Shown in pieces: positions 19,307-39,367 of a DNA stretch of 64,000 nt (positions within the stretch are counted from its first letter, which is position 1; each line of letters begins with the position of its first letter). The stretch is taken from positions 1 through 64,000 of IMG/VR virus record IMGVR_UViG_3300042886_000261; one strand, written 5' to 3'. The notes beneath the pieces are model-generated. The model was not told the origin of the DNA, ran no database searches, and worked only from the letters and a program-made list of their open reading frames with translations. Position numbers and translations under genes: made by a program. This DNA comes from a virus.

Positions 19307-19405
19307 AATAATTTGATTTTATATATAATAATATACGCAAAAGATTCTAGATATACAAATATAAAAAAGAAAAGCCACATTACTGTGACTCTTACTTTTT
19401 AATTT

Positions 19406-22697: not shown

Positions 22698-23369
22698 TTA
22701 GTATATAATAAAATTTATTTCTTCACCTTCAATAGTTAAGAACTCATATTCAAATGAAACTTTAGCATCAATACCATCAATACCAGCAGTAGCCGCATCT
22801 ATTACTAAATACAAATCTACTTCAGTTGGAGAATAATTATCTAATGCAATAGTCATATATTCTGCAGGAATTCTAGCACCACTATTATCATCTGTTACAA
22901 ATGCACCATTTGCAAAAGCAGATGCAAGTGATGATGGTGTTAATCCATTAGAAGTTACTGACCCAGATGTTTTCCATGGCAAATTAAAATTAAGACCATT
23001 AAGACATTGTATTGTACCAATGTATTCTACAATACTATTATCTGCAATAAGATCATATGATCCACCTATTTTTTGACCAACTAGATTTGCTGCAAATGCT
23101 GTAGGAAAAGCAGGAGTATCTTCAATTCTTGTACAAGTTTTAATCATTGATGGTGTAATGATCCAAGGATAATCATCTAAGATACCTGTTTTATAAGTAC
23201 TATTAGCTTGACAACCTGCAGCAACTGCATCATTTAATGTCATTGCTACTGTAAGATATTTGTCATCTCTTTTTCTTGAGGGCGCACCTACAGCAACTAA
23301 AGATCCATCTGGAGGTGTAGTAGTTACACGCTTTGCTTTGATCCAGGAAATAAAATTTAAAATGTCCAT
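22698..23369 (-). CDS. Structural/decoration protein, paralog of 21864..22493
   Basis: Shared N-terminus; first gene behind a TATATTA promoter. Confidence 0.6.
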   Translation of the reverse strand: MDILNFISWIKAKRVTTTPPDGSLVAVGAPSRKRDDKYLTVAMTLNDAVAAGCQANSTYKTGILDDYPWIITPSMIKTCTRIEDTPAFPTAFAANLVGQKIGGSYDLIADNSIVEYIGTIQCLNGLNFNLPWKTSGSVTSNGLTPSSLASAFANGAFVTDDNSGARIPAEYMTIALDNYSPTEVDLYLVIDAATAGIDGIDAKVSFEYEFLTIEGEEINFIIY

Positions 23370-23396
23370 GATTATTTTTTTTATATATATATACTA

Positions 23397-23403
23397 TAAT
23401 ATA
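23397..23403 (-). promoter_or_regulatory. Putative late promoter motif TATATTA
   Basis: Found about 23-31 nt upstream of structural operon heads: 1511-1517, 11225-11231, 19329-19335 and 23397-23403. Confidence 0.45.
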
Positions 23404-23417
23404 CAAAATAATTATAT

Positions 23418-23505
23418 AAAAAACAAAATCCCAGATTAATTTTCTGGGATTTCCTTACCTAGCTAGTCGAATAAATAGTCTAATACTGAGAATAATAGTT
23501 TAGCT
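23418..23505 (-). ncRNA. Putative small RNA A
   Basis: TATATTG-like promoter at ~23510-23516, no ORF, ends in UAGGUAAGG plus a 10-bp terminator hairpin and U-tract shared with sRNA C. Confidence 0.45.
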
Positions 23506-23531
23506 GTTGCAATATATAAATAATATTTTAA

Positions 23532-23753
23532 TTAGATATACTTTTTTAATTTTTTATTTCTAATTTTTTTTGTCTTATGTATACTTTTTCTAGCAGAGGT
23601 TCTAGCATTAACCATTTTGTTTTTAACTCTTAGGTCTTCCTTGAATACAATCTTATTACGCATTGCCATATCATCATTGTGACTCCCTCCTTGATTATAG
23701 TTAGGACCAACTGATGCACATGAATACAATAATAATATCAAGAACCATTTCAT
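23532..23753 (-). CDS. Small lipoprotein
   Basis: MKWFLILLLYSC lipobox; basic tail. Confidence 0.55.
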   Translation of the reverse strand: MKWFLILLLYSCASVGPNYNQGGSHNDDMAMRNKIVFKEDLRVKNKMVNARTSARKSIHKTKKIRNKKLKKYI

Positions 23754-24064
23754 TTCTTTAACTCAGCTATTCTTCTTTTTAAATATACTTCAGCTTTTTC
23801 CAGATCCTCTAACTCTTTAGTAGCATCTTTTTTTCCAGCACGTGCCAGATATTTAATTACATTACCTAAGTAAAAATCTTTATCAAGTCCCCATGCTTCT
23901 AGTACGTTGAATACTTCATATACATTTCCATCACCACCATAGTGTTCTGGTCTTAGTACAGGCTTAGGAGTTGTGTACTTAAAAGAGTTTGGTAATGCAT
24001 TATCATAATATCTATTCTTAGATTTCTCATTATAGAGATCACAAAGTTTATTCATATCTACCAT
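23750..24064 (-). CDS. DUF3310-like phage protein
   Basis: PEHYGG...FYLGNVIKYLARAGKK...EDLEKAEVYL. Confidence 0.85.
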   Translation of the reverse strand: MVDMNKLCDLYNEKSKNRYYDNALPNSFKYTTPKPVLRPEHYGGDGNVYEVFNVLEAWGLDKDFYLGNVIKYLARAGKKDATKELEDLEKAEVYLKRRIAELKK

Positions 24065-24348
24065 ACTATTGCAATGTCATATTCACTTACCATCAACTTA
24101 ATACCTCCGTCAACTTCAATAGCTTCTGCATTCTTGATAGCATTAACACCAATGTAAACTACATCACCTGCCTCTAAAGTTTTAACTTCTTCACCAACTG
24201 CATACACTGTTAACTTGGTCCACTTCTTCATGTCCTCAGCATCCATGTGTGCTTTGTCAGCTTCACTTAATTCAATCACAGATTCTTTTCTTTCTGGCTG
24301 ACTGATTAATACTCTACGTCCTTTAAGACTTTTAATTGCTTTACTCAT
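24058..24348 (-). CDS. groES: GroES-like co-chaperonin
   Basis: LKGRRVLI...VYAVGEEV..LEAGDVVY...MVSEYDIAIV resembles Cpn10. Confidence 0.75.
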   Translation of the reverse strand: MSKAIKSLKGRRVLISQPERKESVIELSEADKAHMDAEDMKKWTKLTVYAVGEEVKTLEAGDVVYIGVNAIKNAEAIEVDGGIKLMVSEYDIAIVW

Positions 24349-24409
24349 AATACTATGTTTTAATTATCCAGTAAAGATAATAAATTTATTAAACAATTAA
24401 AGTTTAAAC

Positions 24410-24497
24410 AAAAAAATAAGTCTAGAATTTTACATCTAGACTTACCCTGATAACCAATCAAAACAATAACCATTATAAATCGCAAAACAATAATGAT
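24410..24497 (-). ncRNA. Putative small RNA B
   Basis: TATATTTG promoter 24502-24509; GGUAAG running into a 10-bp terminator taagtctaga/tctagactta plus U-tract; no ORF. Confidence 0.5.
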
Positions 24498-24513
24498 ATC
24501 ACAAATATAAGTA

Positions 24514-24777
24514 TTATTCAAATACCTTATACATCCTATTAAATTTTTTTTCTGGCATGAGTGAAAATGTACCGGCCCAATCCTGTATCACATAGTCCCC
24601 CGGTACTAATCTAATTTCACCATTATCAGTAGTGAGAAAAAAGCTATCAAATTTATGATTGATATAATTAATATGTCCCTCAAAATTCTCATATCCGGAA
24701 ATCTTAATAGCACATTCTTCTGTACCATCATACTGTATAGCCTCAATACTCTTAGGCCTTTCTCTATATAACTGCAT
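24514..24777 (-). CDS. Conserved phage protein (IEAIQYDG...PGDYV family)
   Basis: Motif pattern common in phages; own TATCTTTG promoter. Confidence 0.7.
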   Translation of the reverse strand: MQLYRERPKSIEAIQYDGTEECAIKISGYENFEGHINYINHKFDSFFLTTDNGEIRLVPGDYVIQDWAGTFSLMPEKKFNRMYKVFE

Positions 24778-24809
24778 AATAAATAATTTTAAGATACAAA
24801 GATAATAAT

Positions 24810-24882
24810 AAAAACAAAATCCCCAGACATGTGCCCAGGGATTTCCTTACCTAACTAAATAAATTTAAAAAAATTTATGATA
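24810..24882 (-). ncRNA. Putative small RNA C
   Basis: TATATTTG promoter 24887-24894 right behind a terminator; no upstream ORF; 3' end shares 16 nt (TAGGTAAGGAAATCCC) and GGGATTTTGTTTTT with sRNA A. Confidence 0.55.
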
Positions 24883-24898
24883 CATGCAAATATACAAT

Positions 24899-25030
24899 AA
24901 AAAAACCCAGGTAGTAATTCTTGATCAGAGAAACTTTCCTGGGGGTAGTAAAGTTATAGACATTGTCCTTTCCCTTACTAAGAAGTCCAAACCTGGGACG
25001 CTGATCTTACGGGAAGCGTGTCTGGCACCT
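24899..25030 (-). ncRNA. Putative structured small RNA D
   Basis: TATATTTG promoter 25035-25042; GC-rich stems AGACA/TGTCT, CGCT/AGCG, TCCC/GGGA; CCCAGG/CCTGGG terminator plus U-tract. Confidence 0.55.
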
Positions 25031-25221
25031 AATACAAATATAAAACAATTCCCCGGGAATACACCTTACCTATAATAAATAAATACGGAGGTAGATTTAG
25101 TATATGCAGTAAGATGTAGTGGACCCTCCATAGCAAACCCCCCGGCCCTTCAGGCCTAGCTGGTACCCCCCATTGTTTAAAGGAATTCAGCTCACAACCA
25201 TTATGAAAAATACTAAAAATT

Positions 25222-25419
25222 ATGAGAACAGATATTAGAATTGTACTTGTGTTGGTGGATCCAACACTTGCTACTGCTGCACCTGAAGGTGCTAGAGTTA
25301 TTGCTATGAGCCAAGCTCAAGCAATGATCAACACCTGGATAACACAAGGTGTTCTTGTTAAATATAAAGTTGGCCCTTGTAATGACCACTTATTATTTGA
25401 GATTATAAGAACTAAGTAA
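25222..25419 (+). CDS. Early hypothetical protein
   Basis: A-rich leader; followed by terminator taagggt/accctta. Confidence 0.6.
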   Translation: MRTDIRIVLVLVDPTLATAAPEGARVIAMSQAQAMINTWITQGVLVKYKVGPCNDHLLFEIIRTK

Positions 25420-25433
25420 GGGTTATACCCTTA

Positions 25434-25488
25434 TTTTTTTCTTGCCTGCGGCAGCTTTTATTTATTCAGCTCTAAACTATTAGGGATA
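25434..25488 (+). repeat. Early-region repeat copy (triloop hairpin + CAGCT..ATTCAGCT..AAACT..GGGATA)
   Basis: Near-identical to 25953-26004; partial copy at 25144-25193. Confidence 0.8.
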
Positions 25489-25517
25489 TAAATGTTTAAT
25501 TAATTAAATTTAGAGTT

Positions 25518-25844
25518 ATGGAAACTGTTAAAGACCCAATTGCGGTTTGTACTATTAAAAGTATAGACGCAGAAATCAGTATCAATACCAATGGTAAAAG
25601 ATACAAAAAAGTAACTTTAATCACTGCTTCAGGGAAACCTGCTAGAGGAGTGATTTATGAAGTTGTGTGGGATAAAGTATCTCAGGGAGATGAAGTAAAT
25701 GTGGCGTTATCCTTAATGGATGATAACAAAACACTTATCCCAAGTGTATTAGGATTACCAATGGAATCATTATCATATGATGATTTTGGTATCACTGCAC
25801 CTGCACCTGCTGTTAAAGATGATATGGAAAACCCATTCTCTTAA
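25518..25844 (+). CDS. OB-fold/SSB-like early protein
   Basis: Beta-rich (NGKRYKKVTL) with acidic DDMENPFS tail. Confidence 0.5.
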   Translation: METVKDPIAVCTIKSIDAEISINTNGKRYKKVTLITASGKPARGVIYEVVWDKVSQGDEVNVALSLMDDNKTLIPSVLGLPMESLSYDDFGITAPAPAVKDDMENPFS

Positions 25845-25855
25845 CACGGAAGAAT

Positions 25856-25892
25856 AAACCCTTACCTTAATAGGTAGGGGTTTATTATTTTT
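25856..25892 (+). terminator. Intrinsic terminator
   Basis: aaacccttacc/ggtaggggttt hairpin plus T-tract. Confidence 0.7.
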
Positions 25893-25952
25893 ATTCCCAT
25901 TGTAGTTAAATGTATTACTGTGTTTGATATACTGTGTATGATGCACTATGTA

Positions 25953-26004
25953 TTTTTTCTTGGCTTTGCCAGCTTTATTATTCAGCTTTAAACTGTAGGG
26001 GATA
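25953..26004 (+). repeat. Early-region repeat copy
   Basis: Matches 25434-25488 with a covarying hairpin stem. Confidence 0.8.
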
Positions 26005-26470
26005 GTAGTGTTGGTAAATTATGTGGTCTATTGATATAAAGATATAATGTCATTTAACTACATGGTCTTATTATATATACTTAGTCAGATGCATTAAGTA
26101 TAAGTTGACAGTAATGTTGTATTTATATTAATCATATTGACAGTCTCACACCGGTACTTGTAGTCAAATTGATTATATTATAGGTGATGTTAGTTATGTT
26201 GTAGGTAATGTTGTAACATGCTGGTAGTTAAATAGTTATGTGGATATAATTTGTGTGAGAATGTGTGAGATAAAGTAGTTGACAGTCAAACACCCACCTA
26301 AACTAATGCTTTAACTCACATCTGTAACTACCTGATTAGGCTATATCTATATTAATATATGGCTAAATCATGAACTTAGTCTACTCACTCACATTACAAT
26401 ACTATATTCTTATCTATTAGTTAGTAGGAGAGTATAATAGCTATTGAATCCGGAATCTTAATAAATTTAA

Positions 26471-26683
26471 AATAGTAATGTACCATTCTCACTTCCCAAG
26501 GGTGAGCAGTTGTAATACACATATAGACTCAGTTGAAACCTCCAAAGGCTCCCTTAAAAAGCCCAATAGAATATTTGGTAAATACTGTTTAAAATGGTGT
26601 ATGTAACATGTCTGTGATAGACTCTTTAATTAGAGAACTAAAACATCAGCTTATGTATTACAACTGAGTACAGAGGGATTATT
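26471..26683 (+). ncRNA. Twister-like self-cleaving ribozyme (type P1) with ~135-nt insert in P5
   Basis: P1 aatag/ttatt; UAA cleavage loop 26476-78; P2 tgta/taca; P4 ctcac/gtgag with loop (t)TCCC-AA-GG; T1 TCCC/GGGA; T2 CC/GG; GA after P2'; 13-bp P5. Confidence 0.65.
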
Positions 26684-26684
26684 A

Positions 26685-27225
26685 CCGTGATGTCCTGTTT
26701 GGGTTCTTGAATACACGTAAAAACTGAAGAACATCCTATCCAGTAAGTTGCTGGCGTTGGCTCACCATAACAGACAAGTGAGAAATTAAATGTAGGTGAC
26801 AACCATTAACCAAAGAGGATCTTTGGGGTTACGCTGAACAGATTGACAAAGTCTTTAGTATCATAAATCGGGGATGCCCAGTTCAGTATTGATACACTAC
26901 ATTTTAATAACATAGTCCTATGCACCTTAACCAATAAAAGCTAAGGGACTTAATCCGTTAAACAAAGGTGGTTAGCAATAACCAGTATATAAGGAGTGTT
27001 ATTATTATATGATTCAAGACAATCAATCCTGAAGAGGATTTGTCAGGAGAAATTCATAAGGCTGAACAATAGTTCAGTATATAAACTTATGATGTCTAGC
27101 CTGATATAAACAAGCAGAGTACATTGTACTAACTTATCTGTGCTTTTGGAGTTAGCTACCAAGGGTGGGAACGGGGAACAGAGTGTGTAGATATTCCATG
27201 GGTCTACACCTGCTTGTTTATTTTT
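26685..27225 (+). ncRNA. Multi-domain structured non-coding RNA region
   Basis: No ORF in the track, GC-elevated, many nested inverted repeats (e.g. 26788-95/26897-904, 27054-60/27086-92, 27106-17/27210-21). Confidence 0.55.
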
Positions 27226-27265
27226 ATTAACTGAAAAATTATTAACTGAAACTAAAACTGAAAAG

Positions 27266-27406
27266 ATGAAAGAATTAACATGTAGTCAATGTGGTAATAT
27301 TATTATAGAATCTTATGTAACAAAAGGAACATATATACAATGTTTTGATTGTTATGCACAAGAAGAATATGATTTTGAAAACCCAAATCTTAATGATTAT
27401 GAATAA
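27266..27406 (+). CDS. Small zinc-finger protein (46 aa)
   Basis: Not in track; MKELTCSQCG...QCFDC. Confidence 0.55.
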   Translation: MKELTCSQCGNIIIESYVTKGTYIQCFDCYAQEEYDFENPNLNDYE

Positions 27407-27644
27407 AGAAATAGTATATTGGACAATGAGAAATGGTCAGCAAATAGATGTTGACCTAATGGATGAAAAACATTTAAGAAATACTCTTAAAATGATTATT
27501 AGAAACTCTAATAAACAAGTAGTTAAACCTGTTAAAGAGTTTAAATTCAATGGTGAGATTGCACAAGAAATGCATGATAATATGATCATTGAAGAAATAA
27601 TGGGAGATATGATGGATGAATGGTATGATATAACTGAAAATTAA
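27399..27644 (+). CDS. Early hypothetical protein (start MNKEIVYW)
   Basis: W....G....V..M...HL.N.LKM motif common in phages; ATG at 27399 preferred over the track start. Confidence 0.65.
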   Translation: MNKEIVYWTMRNGQQIDVDLMDEKHLRNTLKMIIRNSNKQVVKPVKEFKFNGEIAQEMHDNMIIEEIMGDMMDEWYDITEN

Positions 27645-30161: not shown

Positions 30162-30632
30162 ATGAGTAAAGTAAGAGTAATTGGAGATGAAACAGGAAAT
30201 GTTATCAACCAGTCAGCAACTAATCCAGATTATGGATATGTAAGAGTAGAAAGTGTAAAAACTACCATTGATGATAATGGATTTTTAAGAAAAAGATCTA
30301 TTAGTACCTTGATTCAAGGTCATTTAACTGATTTAAAATCAGAAGGTTATTACAGTGGACAAGAATTAAATGGTAAAATTGTAGTATTGGAGGCATTAAC
30401 TCCATTTAACAAAAAGAATCCTGAAAGAGATATTAAACAAGCAGGTAACACTGGTATTGTTTGTACTCTTGGAGGTGAACCAATTTACAGAAAAACTCTG
30501 TACACATTATCATCAAATGCAGAAGATGTATTTATTAAACATGATAATGTAGAGCAAATCAGAAATGCATTTGGAGGTGTTCAAAAAACATCTGCAGTAA
30601 ATGCTGAAACATCTGATGAATTCAATTTTTAA
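30162..30632 (+). CDS. Putative single-stranded DNA-binding protein
   Basis: Beta-rich body, flexible linker and acidic/aromatic tail ETSDEFNF; own terminator at 30648-30677. Confidence 0.5.
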   Translation: MSKVRVIGDETGNVINQSATNPDYGYVRVESVKTTIDDNGFLRKRSISTLIQGHLTDLKSEGYYSGQELNGKIVVLEALTPFNKKNPERDIKQAGNTGIVCTLGGEPIYRKTLYTLSSNAEDVFIKHDNVEQIRNAFGGVQKTSAVNAETSDEFNF

Positions 30633-38726: not shown

Positions 38727-38961
38727 AGCAGGATTTGATAAAGTAATTGTTACTAAGGAAGAATCTGGTGATAAAAATGATTATTACTATTACTCATATG
38801 AAATAAACTCTGATGTAATACTGATATCAAATGAAAGTGATGAGATAAATAATAATCAGTGGAAAGTATATGAGCACTCTTGGGGTGTTGCTATGACAGA
38901 TATTGAAGATGTAGTATTACTTATTGACTTATTTAAAAAGTGGAGTAAAATACCATTATAA
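38704..38961 (+). CDS. Hypothetical protein
   Basis: 85 aa, EL..AGF motif. Confidence 0.6.
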   Translation: MKQQELTEAGFDKVIVTKEESGDKNDYYYYSYEINSDVILISNESDEINNNQWKVYEHSWGVAMTDIEDVVLLIDLFKKWSKIPL

Positions 38962-38980
38962 CCTTTAAAACAAAACCAAT

Positions 38981-39367
38981 ATGTTTAGCGCAAAATTTAT
39001 TAAGAAAAATGGAAAACTCACCTACAAAACTGAAAAGGAAAGTTTAGCTTATGCTGAATTTGTAAAATTAGTAGAAGAAGATGAGGAATTAGAAATGTTT
39101 ATTAGCATTCAAGGTAAATCTGGATCTTATGCACAAATCTCAAAAATACATGTATGTATTAGAGAAATGGCAAAAGAATCAGGATATACATTTGATGAAA
39201 TGAAAAAACTTGTCAAAACACAAGCAGGATTATGCTTTGATGTAAATGATGAAGGTAGAAAGCTTGAGATGTGCAAATCATTTGCTGAGTGTTCAAGTGA
39301 TGAGCTATCCCAAGCTGTTCAAGCATGTATAGAAATAGGAGCAGAGTACAATATTAATCTAGCGTAG
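38981..39367 (+). CDS. NinB/DUF1367-like protein
   Basis: S.AQ...IH..IRE.A.E.GYT.DEMK...KSFA.CS..EL. Confidence 0.55.
   Translation: MFSAKFIKKNGKLTYKTEKESLAYAEFVKLVEEDEELEMFISIQGKSGSYAQISKIHVCIREMAKESGYTFDEMKKLVKTQAGLCFDVNDEGRKLEMCKSFAECSSDELSQAVQACIEIGAEYNINLA

Follow-up and report, generated by a model that had tools for sequence, protein, structure and literature searches.

What use might a phage make of a string of tiny transcription units that encode no protein? The question is raised by the minus strand of positions 23418-25200 in the viral record IMGVR_UViG_3300042886_000261, a sequence of 106,750 bp (G+C content 29.6%) whose first 64 kb form the window. A sequence-only reading had described this region as an array of small-RNA genes without open reading frames (ORFs), and the promoters and the copies of the motif TAGGTAAGG on which that description was built are all present. 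From 5' to 3' on the minus strand, the array runs through units E, D and C, a TATCTTTG promoter with a gene for 87 amino acids (aa), unit B, genes for 96 aa, 104 aa (DUF3310) and 73 aa, unit A and, finally, a gene whose product starts with MDI (the MDI gene). Below, we argue tentatively, at somewhat less than an even chance, for short RNAs that carry a common 3' handle and are made from terminator-promoter cassettes similar to the PeSLs of T4-type phages.

A recurrent 3' module

Three exact copies of the 9-mer TAGGTAAGG lie on the minus strand inside 1.6 kb (23461-23453, 24853-24845 and 25072-25064), each immediately 5' of a hairpin and a T-run. In the window, 0.33 ± 0.59 exact copies would be expected, and none of 100 shuffles gave as many as three; if one mismatch is tolerated, the number (17 vs 13 expected) is not significant. 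Terminator-like sites are likewise numerous in the region, with nine found and 1.8 expected.

Unit A opens with the promoter-like box TATATATTG (23510-23518), a near-match to the -7 box TAnnTTTG, which aligns with a perfect TATATTTG in relatives. Then come a variable 5' part of ~45 nt (23462-23503), including the sequence ATTCTCAG common to the 3' untranslated region (UTR) of a 77-aa gene in relatives, the 8-mer UAGGUAAG (23454-23461) and a terminator (23418-23453) composed of the purine tract GAAA, an 11-bp hairpin (23453-23425) and the run U4GU6. Unit C (24806-24894) is built alike: a TATATTTG box (24894-24887), a variable part of ~27 nt, UAGGUAAG (24853-24846), a 13-bp hairpin (24845-24816) and U4GU5, giving a predicted RNA of ~70 nt. 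The two score 73.6 and 71.8 bits, respectively, with a covariance model of the module, and in the predicted minimum-energy folds of both the 8-mer is unpaired. Their common stem TAGGTAAGGAAATCCC...GGGATTTTGTTTTT encloses different loops, just as the sequence-only reading had it, and both hairpins, of 11 and 13 pairs, are terminator-like. The third copy, at the 3' end of unit E (25043-25072), is weaker (23.2 bits, E 0.021): UAGGUAAGG (25072-25064) is followed by a short GC hairpin, ATTCCCGGGGAAT (25060-25048), and by a weak T-run entering the unit D promoter. The body of unit E (from 25073 to about 25200) is GC-rich (~45%), lacks an ORF and is kept in the closest relatives.

A covariance model of the scaffold had been proposed as a check by the sequence-only reading itself. 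It finds three copies in the 106.7-kb genome, all within this region, and two to three same-strand copies, again confined to one region, in each of three larger related records, of which two are complete. Scanning viral contigs for an exact 16-mer recovered ~33 true relatives that share the hairpin and the tail. As a counter to the bias of a search by motif, relatives were also fetched through the neighbouring 96-aa protein: all 15 loci newly found in this way carry the module with an intact UAGGUAAG. A degenerate scan showed that the module is kept even where the 96-aa protein is only 41-50% identical. Overall, 65 distinct instances were collected from 110 viral loci, falling into 13 stem families and ~36 insert families.

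Across these instances UAGGUAAG is invariant. Among 31 distinct sequences, the hairpin is paired in 99.7% of cells, two pairs showing compensatory changes, and the three to four bases after the 8-mer vary between A and G only, which preserves their pairing with the U-tract. The module is restricted to the clade of this phage. Nine viral loci with the module share no protein with the phage (it stands, for example, behind a terminase fragment or ahead of a prohead protease); they may reflect chance, transfer or fragments too short to tell. Such a pattern of conservation supports the view of the module as a clade-specific constant 3' part, with an 8-mer under strong selection. The ATTTATT noted earlier upstream of the motif does occur in the window, but it is not kept in the wider family.

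In Rfam, nothing reached the gathering score, and at E<=5 the interval 23000-27500 gave three chance-level leader or snoRNA (small nucleolar RNA) matches; a literature search returned no relevant paper on the motif. We also considered a general terminator element of the host and rejected it: 401 Bacteroidota genomes gave 17 pattern matches vs ~55 (a rough count) in a reversed control, and a hairpin was present in three of the 17. The 36 cellular matches of the strict pattern mostly lack the hairpin or lie behind ORFs, looking like chance gene terminators. One cellular terminator, behind a 716-aa ORF of the Bacteroidetes metagenome-assembled genome BCD1 (L120:2612-2664), starts with TAGGTAAGGAAATCCCGGG, ends with CCCGGGATTTTTG and equals the phage module over 18 bases; this likeness could be chance, or a hint of the host lineage or of transfer.

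Promoters and the orphan position of the units

The box TATATTTG, of the Bacteroidota -7 type, heads units B, C and D, and unit A has a near-match only. An upstream TAnnTTTG is the mark of promoters for the Bacteroidota primary sigma factor, and a GC-containing hairpin followed by a U-run that of intrinsic terminators; in the copy of unit E, the stem is short and the tail weak. The same TATATTTG box is also found upstream of structural operons at 19363, 9514 and 101782; the phage probably uses Bacteroidota-type promoters. Of the 65 collected instances, 56 have a promoter-like box at a distance of 10-55 nt upstream. A promoter-like element also follows the terminator in 55 of 65, perfect TAnnTTTG in 25 of these. 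Thus, in the window, the TATCTTTG promoter of the 87-aa gene (24797-24804, minus strand) stands directly after the unit C terminator, forming a composite terminator-promoter junction. Downstream of the TATATTTG box, many units of differing insert families (C, a, d, f and i) have TGTATCAT (24880-24887 in the window), which may be part of the promoter or an initially transcribed signal.

No conserved ORF spans the units. A 53-aa frame with a TTG start across unit B is broken or shifted in relatives, and a plus-strand 63-aa frame across unit D is interrupted there by a 1-nt indel. Unit C cannot be a 3' UTR, since only the unit D terminator and a promoter lie upstream; on this point, as on the ORF-less units with their own signals, the earlier description holds. 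In several relatives (loci L011, L045 and L015), the 77-aa gene ends in a terminator of its own, and this is followed by TATATTTG, 31 nt, the module and the MDI gene. Lying between the terminator of one gene and the promoter of the next, such a unit is therefore an orphan transcription unit. In another relative (L008), units C and b stand in tandem. For unit A of the window the case is less clear-cut: it lies directly behind the 73-aa gene and could alternatively be the 3' end of that gene. Overall, judging from these signals, the comparisons support ORF-less units with predicted promoters and terminators of their own; having no conserved ORF and not being UTRs, they have the marks of independent small-RNA genes.

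Two further possibilities were tried and dropped. The f-type unit could encode a peptide of 14-15 aa through the motif; coding was rejected because the g, A and C types lack such a frame. Nor is the motif a general three-frame stop, UAGnUAGgUAAgg closing all three frames in A and C and not doing so in f, g or b.

Turnover of the 5' parts

The inserts between promoter and motif measure 16-45 nt and belong to the ~36 unrelated families mentioned above. Between pairs of relatives they diverge at least as much as the third codon positions of the adjacent gene (e.g., 79% vs 96% identity), while between lineages they cannot be aligned and have been replaced wholesale, with homology breaking exactly at the promoter and at the 8-mer. 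The g type is conserved in part: a 20-nt insert core is identical despite ~80% synonymous identity. Even close relatives, with 86-95% nucleotide identity, hold different units (E-D-C, E-D-C-b, E-D-b or E-a) and different inserted ORFs.

Since the inserts change at or above the synonymous rate and are unrelated between lineages, the variable parts are not conserved seeds. Hence, the small-RNA family proposed by the sequence-only reading, with a constant handle and variable parts, survives as to its constant 3' module and its variable 5' parts, but not as to seeds. The U-rich 5' parts it described are found in C and B, but not in the others. Its suggested targets, A-rich translation-initiation regions, found no backing either: with every one of the phage's 113 translation-initiation regions as a target, the duplexes predicted for A and C were no better in energy than those of shuffles. 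A blastn-short search for long complementarity to the units elsewhere in the genome found none. Taken together, neither a conserved seed with predicted targets nor a match to a curated family, by which base-pairing small RNAs (sRNAs) are recognised, was found.

The RNA-guided silencing system that the sequence-only reading envisaged also fails to appear. Profile libraries run against ~30 phage proteins identified no guide effector. Instead of a repeat-spacer array, we see a promoter for every unit, irregular spacing and two to four copies per genome, and there are no arrays around the 36 cellular matches.

Units B and D

Unit B (24408-24509, minus strand) consists of a TATATTTG box (24509-24502) and a predicted RNA of ~88 nt with a 14-bp terminator (24448-24413). 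It had been counted in the family for its GGGTAAG. This sequence is part of the stem, where relatives read AGAGTAAG, AAGGTAAG or GGTAGG, and unit B thus has only a looser GUAAG form. We regard it as a different RNA: by its sequence, unit B appears as a separate orphan non-coding unit, kept in the closest relatives and outside the UAGGUAAG family. Its U/G-rich 5' part (24449-24497, minus strand) carries ATTGTTTTG twice. Against the start region (38941-39001, plus strand) of a 129-aa gene at 38981, unit B forms an extended imperfect duplex of -29 kcal/mol, ~2.6 standard deviations past shuffles and better than all 30 of them. A pairing with the SSB-like leader at 30162 was rejected, its -21 kcal/mol being weaker than the mean best-site energy of shuffles (-23.0 kcal/mol).

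Unit D (24899-25042, minus strand) has a TATATTTG box (25042-25035), a predicted RNA of ~128 nt and a terminator of its own (at about 24943-24906). Relatives with just ~70-75% protein identity keep it nearly unchanged, and no Rfam match was found for it. The few changes look compensatory by eye. Inside unit D lies UAGUAAGGGAAAGG, which resembles the UAGGUAAG handle, and in one relative (L137) a diverged D-like copy is situated 3' of a UAGGUAAG unit.

The phage and the neighbourhood of the array

The portal protein of the phage (916 aa) matches phrog_6547, and its best database relatives, 21-31% identical, come from a Leptolyngbya phage and many crAss-like phages; the genome also has very large ORFs, with lengths above 3,500 aa and of 2,219 aa. 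Because of these portal matches and very large ORFs, we assign the phage, on its predicted proteins, to distant crAss-like phages, without a cultured relative (the best portal match being 31% identical). Genes diverge from ~25,200, which is also the minimum of the cumulative GC skew. Rightward lie small genes, then replication genes; leftward lies the region of units A-E, then the structural genes. No transfer RNA or transfer-messenger RNA genes were found, and a megablast of the region against 50,697 phage records gave no match. Recoding of stop codons (TAG as Q, or table 4) was dismissed as an explanation for the scarcity of ORFs, the ORF-poor region staying closed.

Among the neighbouring small proteins, Pfam and PHROGs recognised just DUF3310 and families of unknown function. 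The 96-aa protein (24058-24348, minus strand) has, by eye, the look of a GroES/gp31-type co-chaperonin and matches neither database. The MDI gene (22698-23369, minus strand) comes right after unit A. Its first ~150 nt are ~91% identical in otherwise 75%-identical relatives, whereas the rest is variable and the product ranges from 179 to 397 aa, a pattern typical of tail fibres and receptor-binding proteins; this product has no match in Pfam or PHROGs. On the other side, the rightward early block opens with ~1.4 kb (25890-27260, plus strand) without an ORF of at least 60 aa, parts of which are GC-richer and structured-looking; Rfam gave no match there at E<=5, the twister family included.

What the module may do

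Our tentative proposal of handle-bearing RNAs can be put as follows. Host RNA polymerase would start at the TAnnTTTG box, transcribe a fast-evolving insert of 16-45 nt and stop at the module, releasing RNAs of ~60-95 nt. The module itself consists of UAGGUAAG, predicted to be single-stranded, three to four purines pairing with the U-tract, a hairpin free in sequence and the tail U4GU5, and in most cases a predicted host-type promoter of the next unit comes directly after it. The 8-mer beside a stable hairpin would then be a putative site for an RNA-binding protein, likelier encoded by the host than by the phage and, e.g., of the single-strand RRM type. Abundant short RNAs might either sequester this reader or be stabilised by it, the 5' part being a spacer and not a seed. 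At the level of the genome, the elements would behave as PeSL-like cassettes, between which units and small genes are gained, lost and swapped. What selection appears to hold is the promoter, the 8-mer, the hairpin pairing and the U-tail, leaving the transcribed insert free to change; because within the RNA only the 8-mer and the hairpin pairing are under selection, the RNAs, if made, would most likely act through the handle.

Constant protein-binding 3' elements joined to variable 5' parts are familiar from the Hfq-binding 3' modules of enterobacterial sRNAs and from the handles of CRISPR RNAs. To our knowledge, Hfq is absent from Bacteroidota. The units under study resemble those systems in their constant 3' element (here putatively protein-binding) and variable 5' part, and differ from them in having no repeat-spacer array, no identified cas-like or nuclease partner and no sign of targeting. 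In vitro, the RbpB protein of Bacteroides binds the G/U/A motif GUAGGAUA (bioRxiv 10.1101/2021.04.27.441718), and the sRNAs that serve as its ligands show a single-stranded stretch and then a terminator (PMC11697453). It is tempting to suppose a reader of the RbpB type, which the resemblance of UAGGUAAG to GUAGGAUA makes a lead only. The intergenic sRNAs GibS and FopS, ligands of RbpB (PMC11697453), are nonetheless unlike our units: the 5' seed of FopS is conserved, whereas here the 5' part is hypervariable and it is the 8-mer beside the terminator that is conserved, with no Rfam match and in a phage. The crAss-like phage phi14:2 likewise has non-coding transcription units among its first small genes: it makes intergenic non-coding RNAs in abundance, while the host polymerase reads its middle and late genes (bioRxiv 10.1101/2020.03.07.982082). 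Those RNAs are long and early and persist late in infection; the units described here have host-type promoters.

Several observations weigh against handle-bearing RNAs. A genome-wide search of the phage for RRM domains was negative and no partner protein was identified, the Pfam and PHROGs results for the neighbouring small proteins being uninformative in this respect. The likeness of UAGGUAAG to the RbpB motif is limited to UAGG plus composition. In this window and in three relatives (L133, L168 and L147), the module stands directly behind an ORF. Finally, GUAAG is found at the 5' foot of five of the 14 strong terminators of the genome, including ones behind ORFs (19370-19393, minus strand; 25414-25436, plus strand, where the UAA at 25417-25419 is the stop codon of a 65-aa ORF). 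No 5-mer is commoner at this position, and only the AT-rich TATAA ties. Therefore, the motif may serve 3'-end formation in cis rather than an RNA acting in trans. The sequence-only reading had itself reckoned with a scaffold occurring only on ordinary gene terminators; this is partly what we see, in that a looser GUAAG foot occurs on such terminators of the same phage.

It is possible, if rather doubtful, that punctuation in cis is all there is: PeSL-like terminator-promoter cassettes would insulate the small units that adjoin the divergent control region and offer points for recombination. The 8-mer would assist in forming or processing the 3' end, perhaps in the service of one polymerase or factor in particular, and the orphan RNAs would be inert in trans. 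In T4-type phages, PeSLs combine a terminator and a promoter in one small sequence and mediate indels and exchange (PMC2839356; PMC4122927). Like them, the elements described here are repeated in a hyperplastic region of small genes and sit at the edges of segments inserted, deleted or replaced between close relatives; they have the marks of PeSL-type cassettes, except that the flanking of ORFs is only partly true. Unlike PeSLs, they have an invariant 8-mer before the hairpin and a Bacteroidota -7 promoter, belong to a crAss-like and not a T4-like phage, and in many cases enclose just 16-45 nt without an ORF. The order of terminator and then promoter in 55/65 instances, the breaks of homology exactly at promoter and 8-mer, the unit content and inserted ORFs that differ between 86-95%-identical relatives, the neutral or faster evolution of the inserts and the GUAAG foot on ordinary terminators would all follow from this explanation. 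However, recombination between two cassettes deletes the DNA between them and does not give rise to a promoter with a unique 30 nt and a terminator, and at least one orphan unit is kept in every lineage examined despite the rapid turnover of inserts. Most other strong terminators of the genome, moreover, function without the motif, and an 8-mer invariant over deep divergence next to free stems needs a specific reader under any model. It is also important to note that the handle and PeSL-type punctuation are compatible at the genome level.

Another explanation is borrowed from phage lambda, where PR'-tR' yields a short transcript from a promoter-proximal terminator ahead of the late genes, and where the nut sites (boxA plus boxB) place a conserved short box and then a hairpin near the promoter. 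The units might accordingly be regulated terminators, stopping a constitutive promoter after 60-95 nt until a factor reading UAGGUAAG, with or without the hairpin, permits read-through into unit D, the 87-aa operon and the late tail-fibre-like gene, with the short RNA as a by-product. The geometry fits, a conserved box and hairpin lying 23-52 nt 3' of the promoter, and position A is always followed by the gene that opens the structural block, with its MDI start, conserved N-terminus and variable length. In the f and g lineages, the box of the MDI gene is degenerate (TTATTATG or TTATTGTG) and a perfect TATATTTG stands upstream of the terminator. Furthermore, a short terminated PR' transcript is reported to double as an sRNA in Stx phages (PMC7547250). 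Even so, we consider this scenario unlikely. In contrast to lambda, the hairpin here is a full intrinsic terminator and there is no known Q- or N-like protein or other antiterminator candidate. A promoter follows right after many units (25/65 perfect, 55/65 promoter-like), so read-through is unnecessary for the next unit, and that downstream promoter is degenerate solely in the f and g lineages, ahead of the MDI gene. The loops, unlike boxB, vary between close relatives, and it is not obvious how binding at the 5' foot would block an intrinsic terminator. Guide RNAs, with a constant handle for loading a protein and a variable 5' part for picking targets such as A-rich translation-initiation regions, seem very unlikely. 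They could account for the architecture itself, for the different inserts held by the same locus in different lineages, for the identical g-type core and for the -29 kcal/mol pairing of unit B at 38981. Against these stand an overall insert conservation not above the neutral rate, A and C pairings no better than shuffles, the weak pairing of unit B at 30162, the lack of long complementarity in the genome, the want of a repeat-spacer array, and the want of an effector gene among the ~30 proteins scanned. A bolder version, in which the handle loads a host or phage protein and the inserts are guides under diversifying selection, forming a programmable silencing or anti-defence system with one promoter per guide, is a long shot, faster-than-synonymous change of the inserts being as compatible with no constraint as with an arms race.

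Implications for crAss-like phages

The crAss-like phages are abundant, and their transcription control and RNAs are barely known. The region analysed here offers a sharply defined element that can be tested: an 8-base signal that stays constant across a deep phage clade amid changing surroundings and marks tiny orphan units. Should the module work in cis only, it would represent a new class of terminator and extend the PeSL idea from T4-type to crAss-like phages. If, on the other hand, a Bacteroidota RNA-binding protein docks on the handle, the module would provide a first grip on how such phages use or disarm the RNA-binding proteins of their hosts, as well as a tag for pulling these proteins down.

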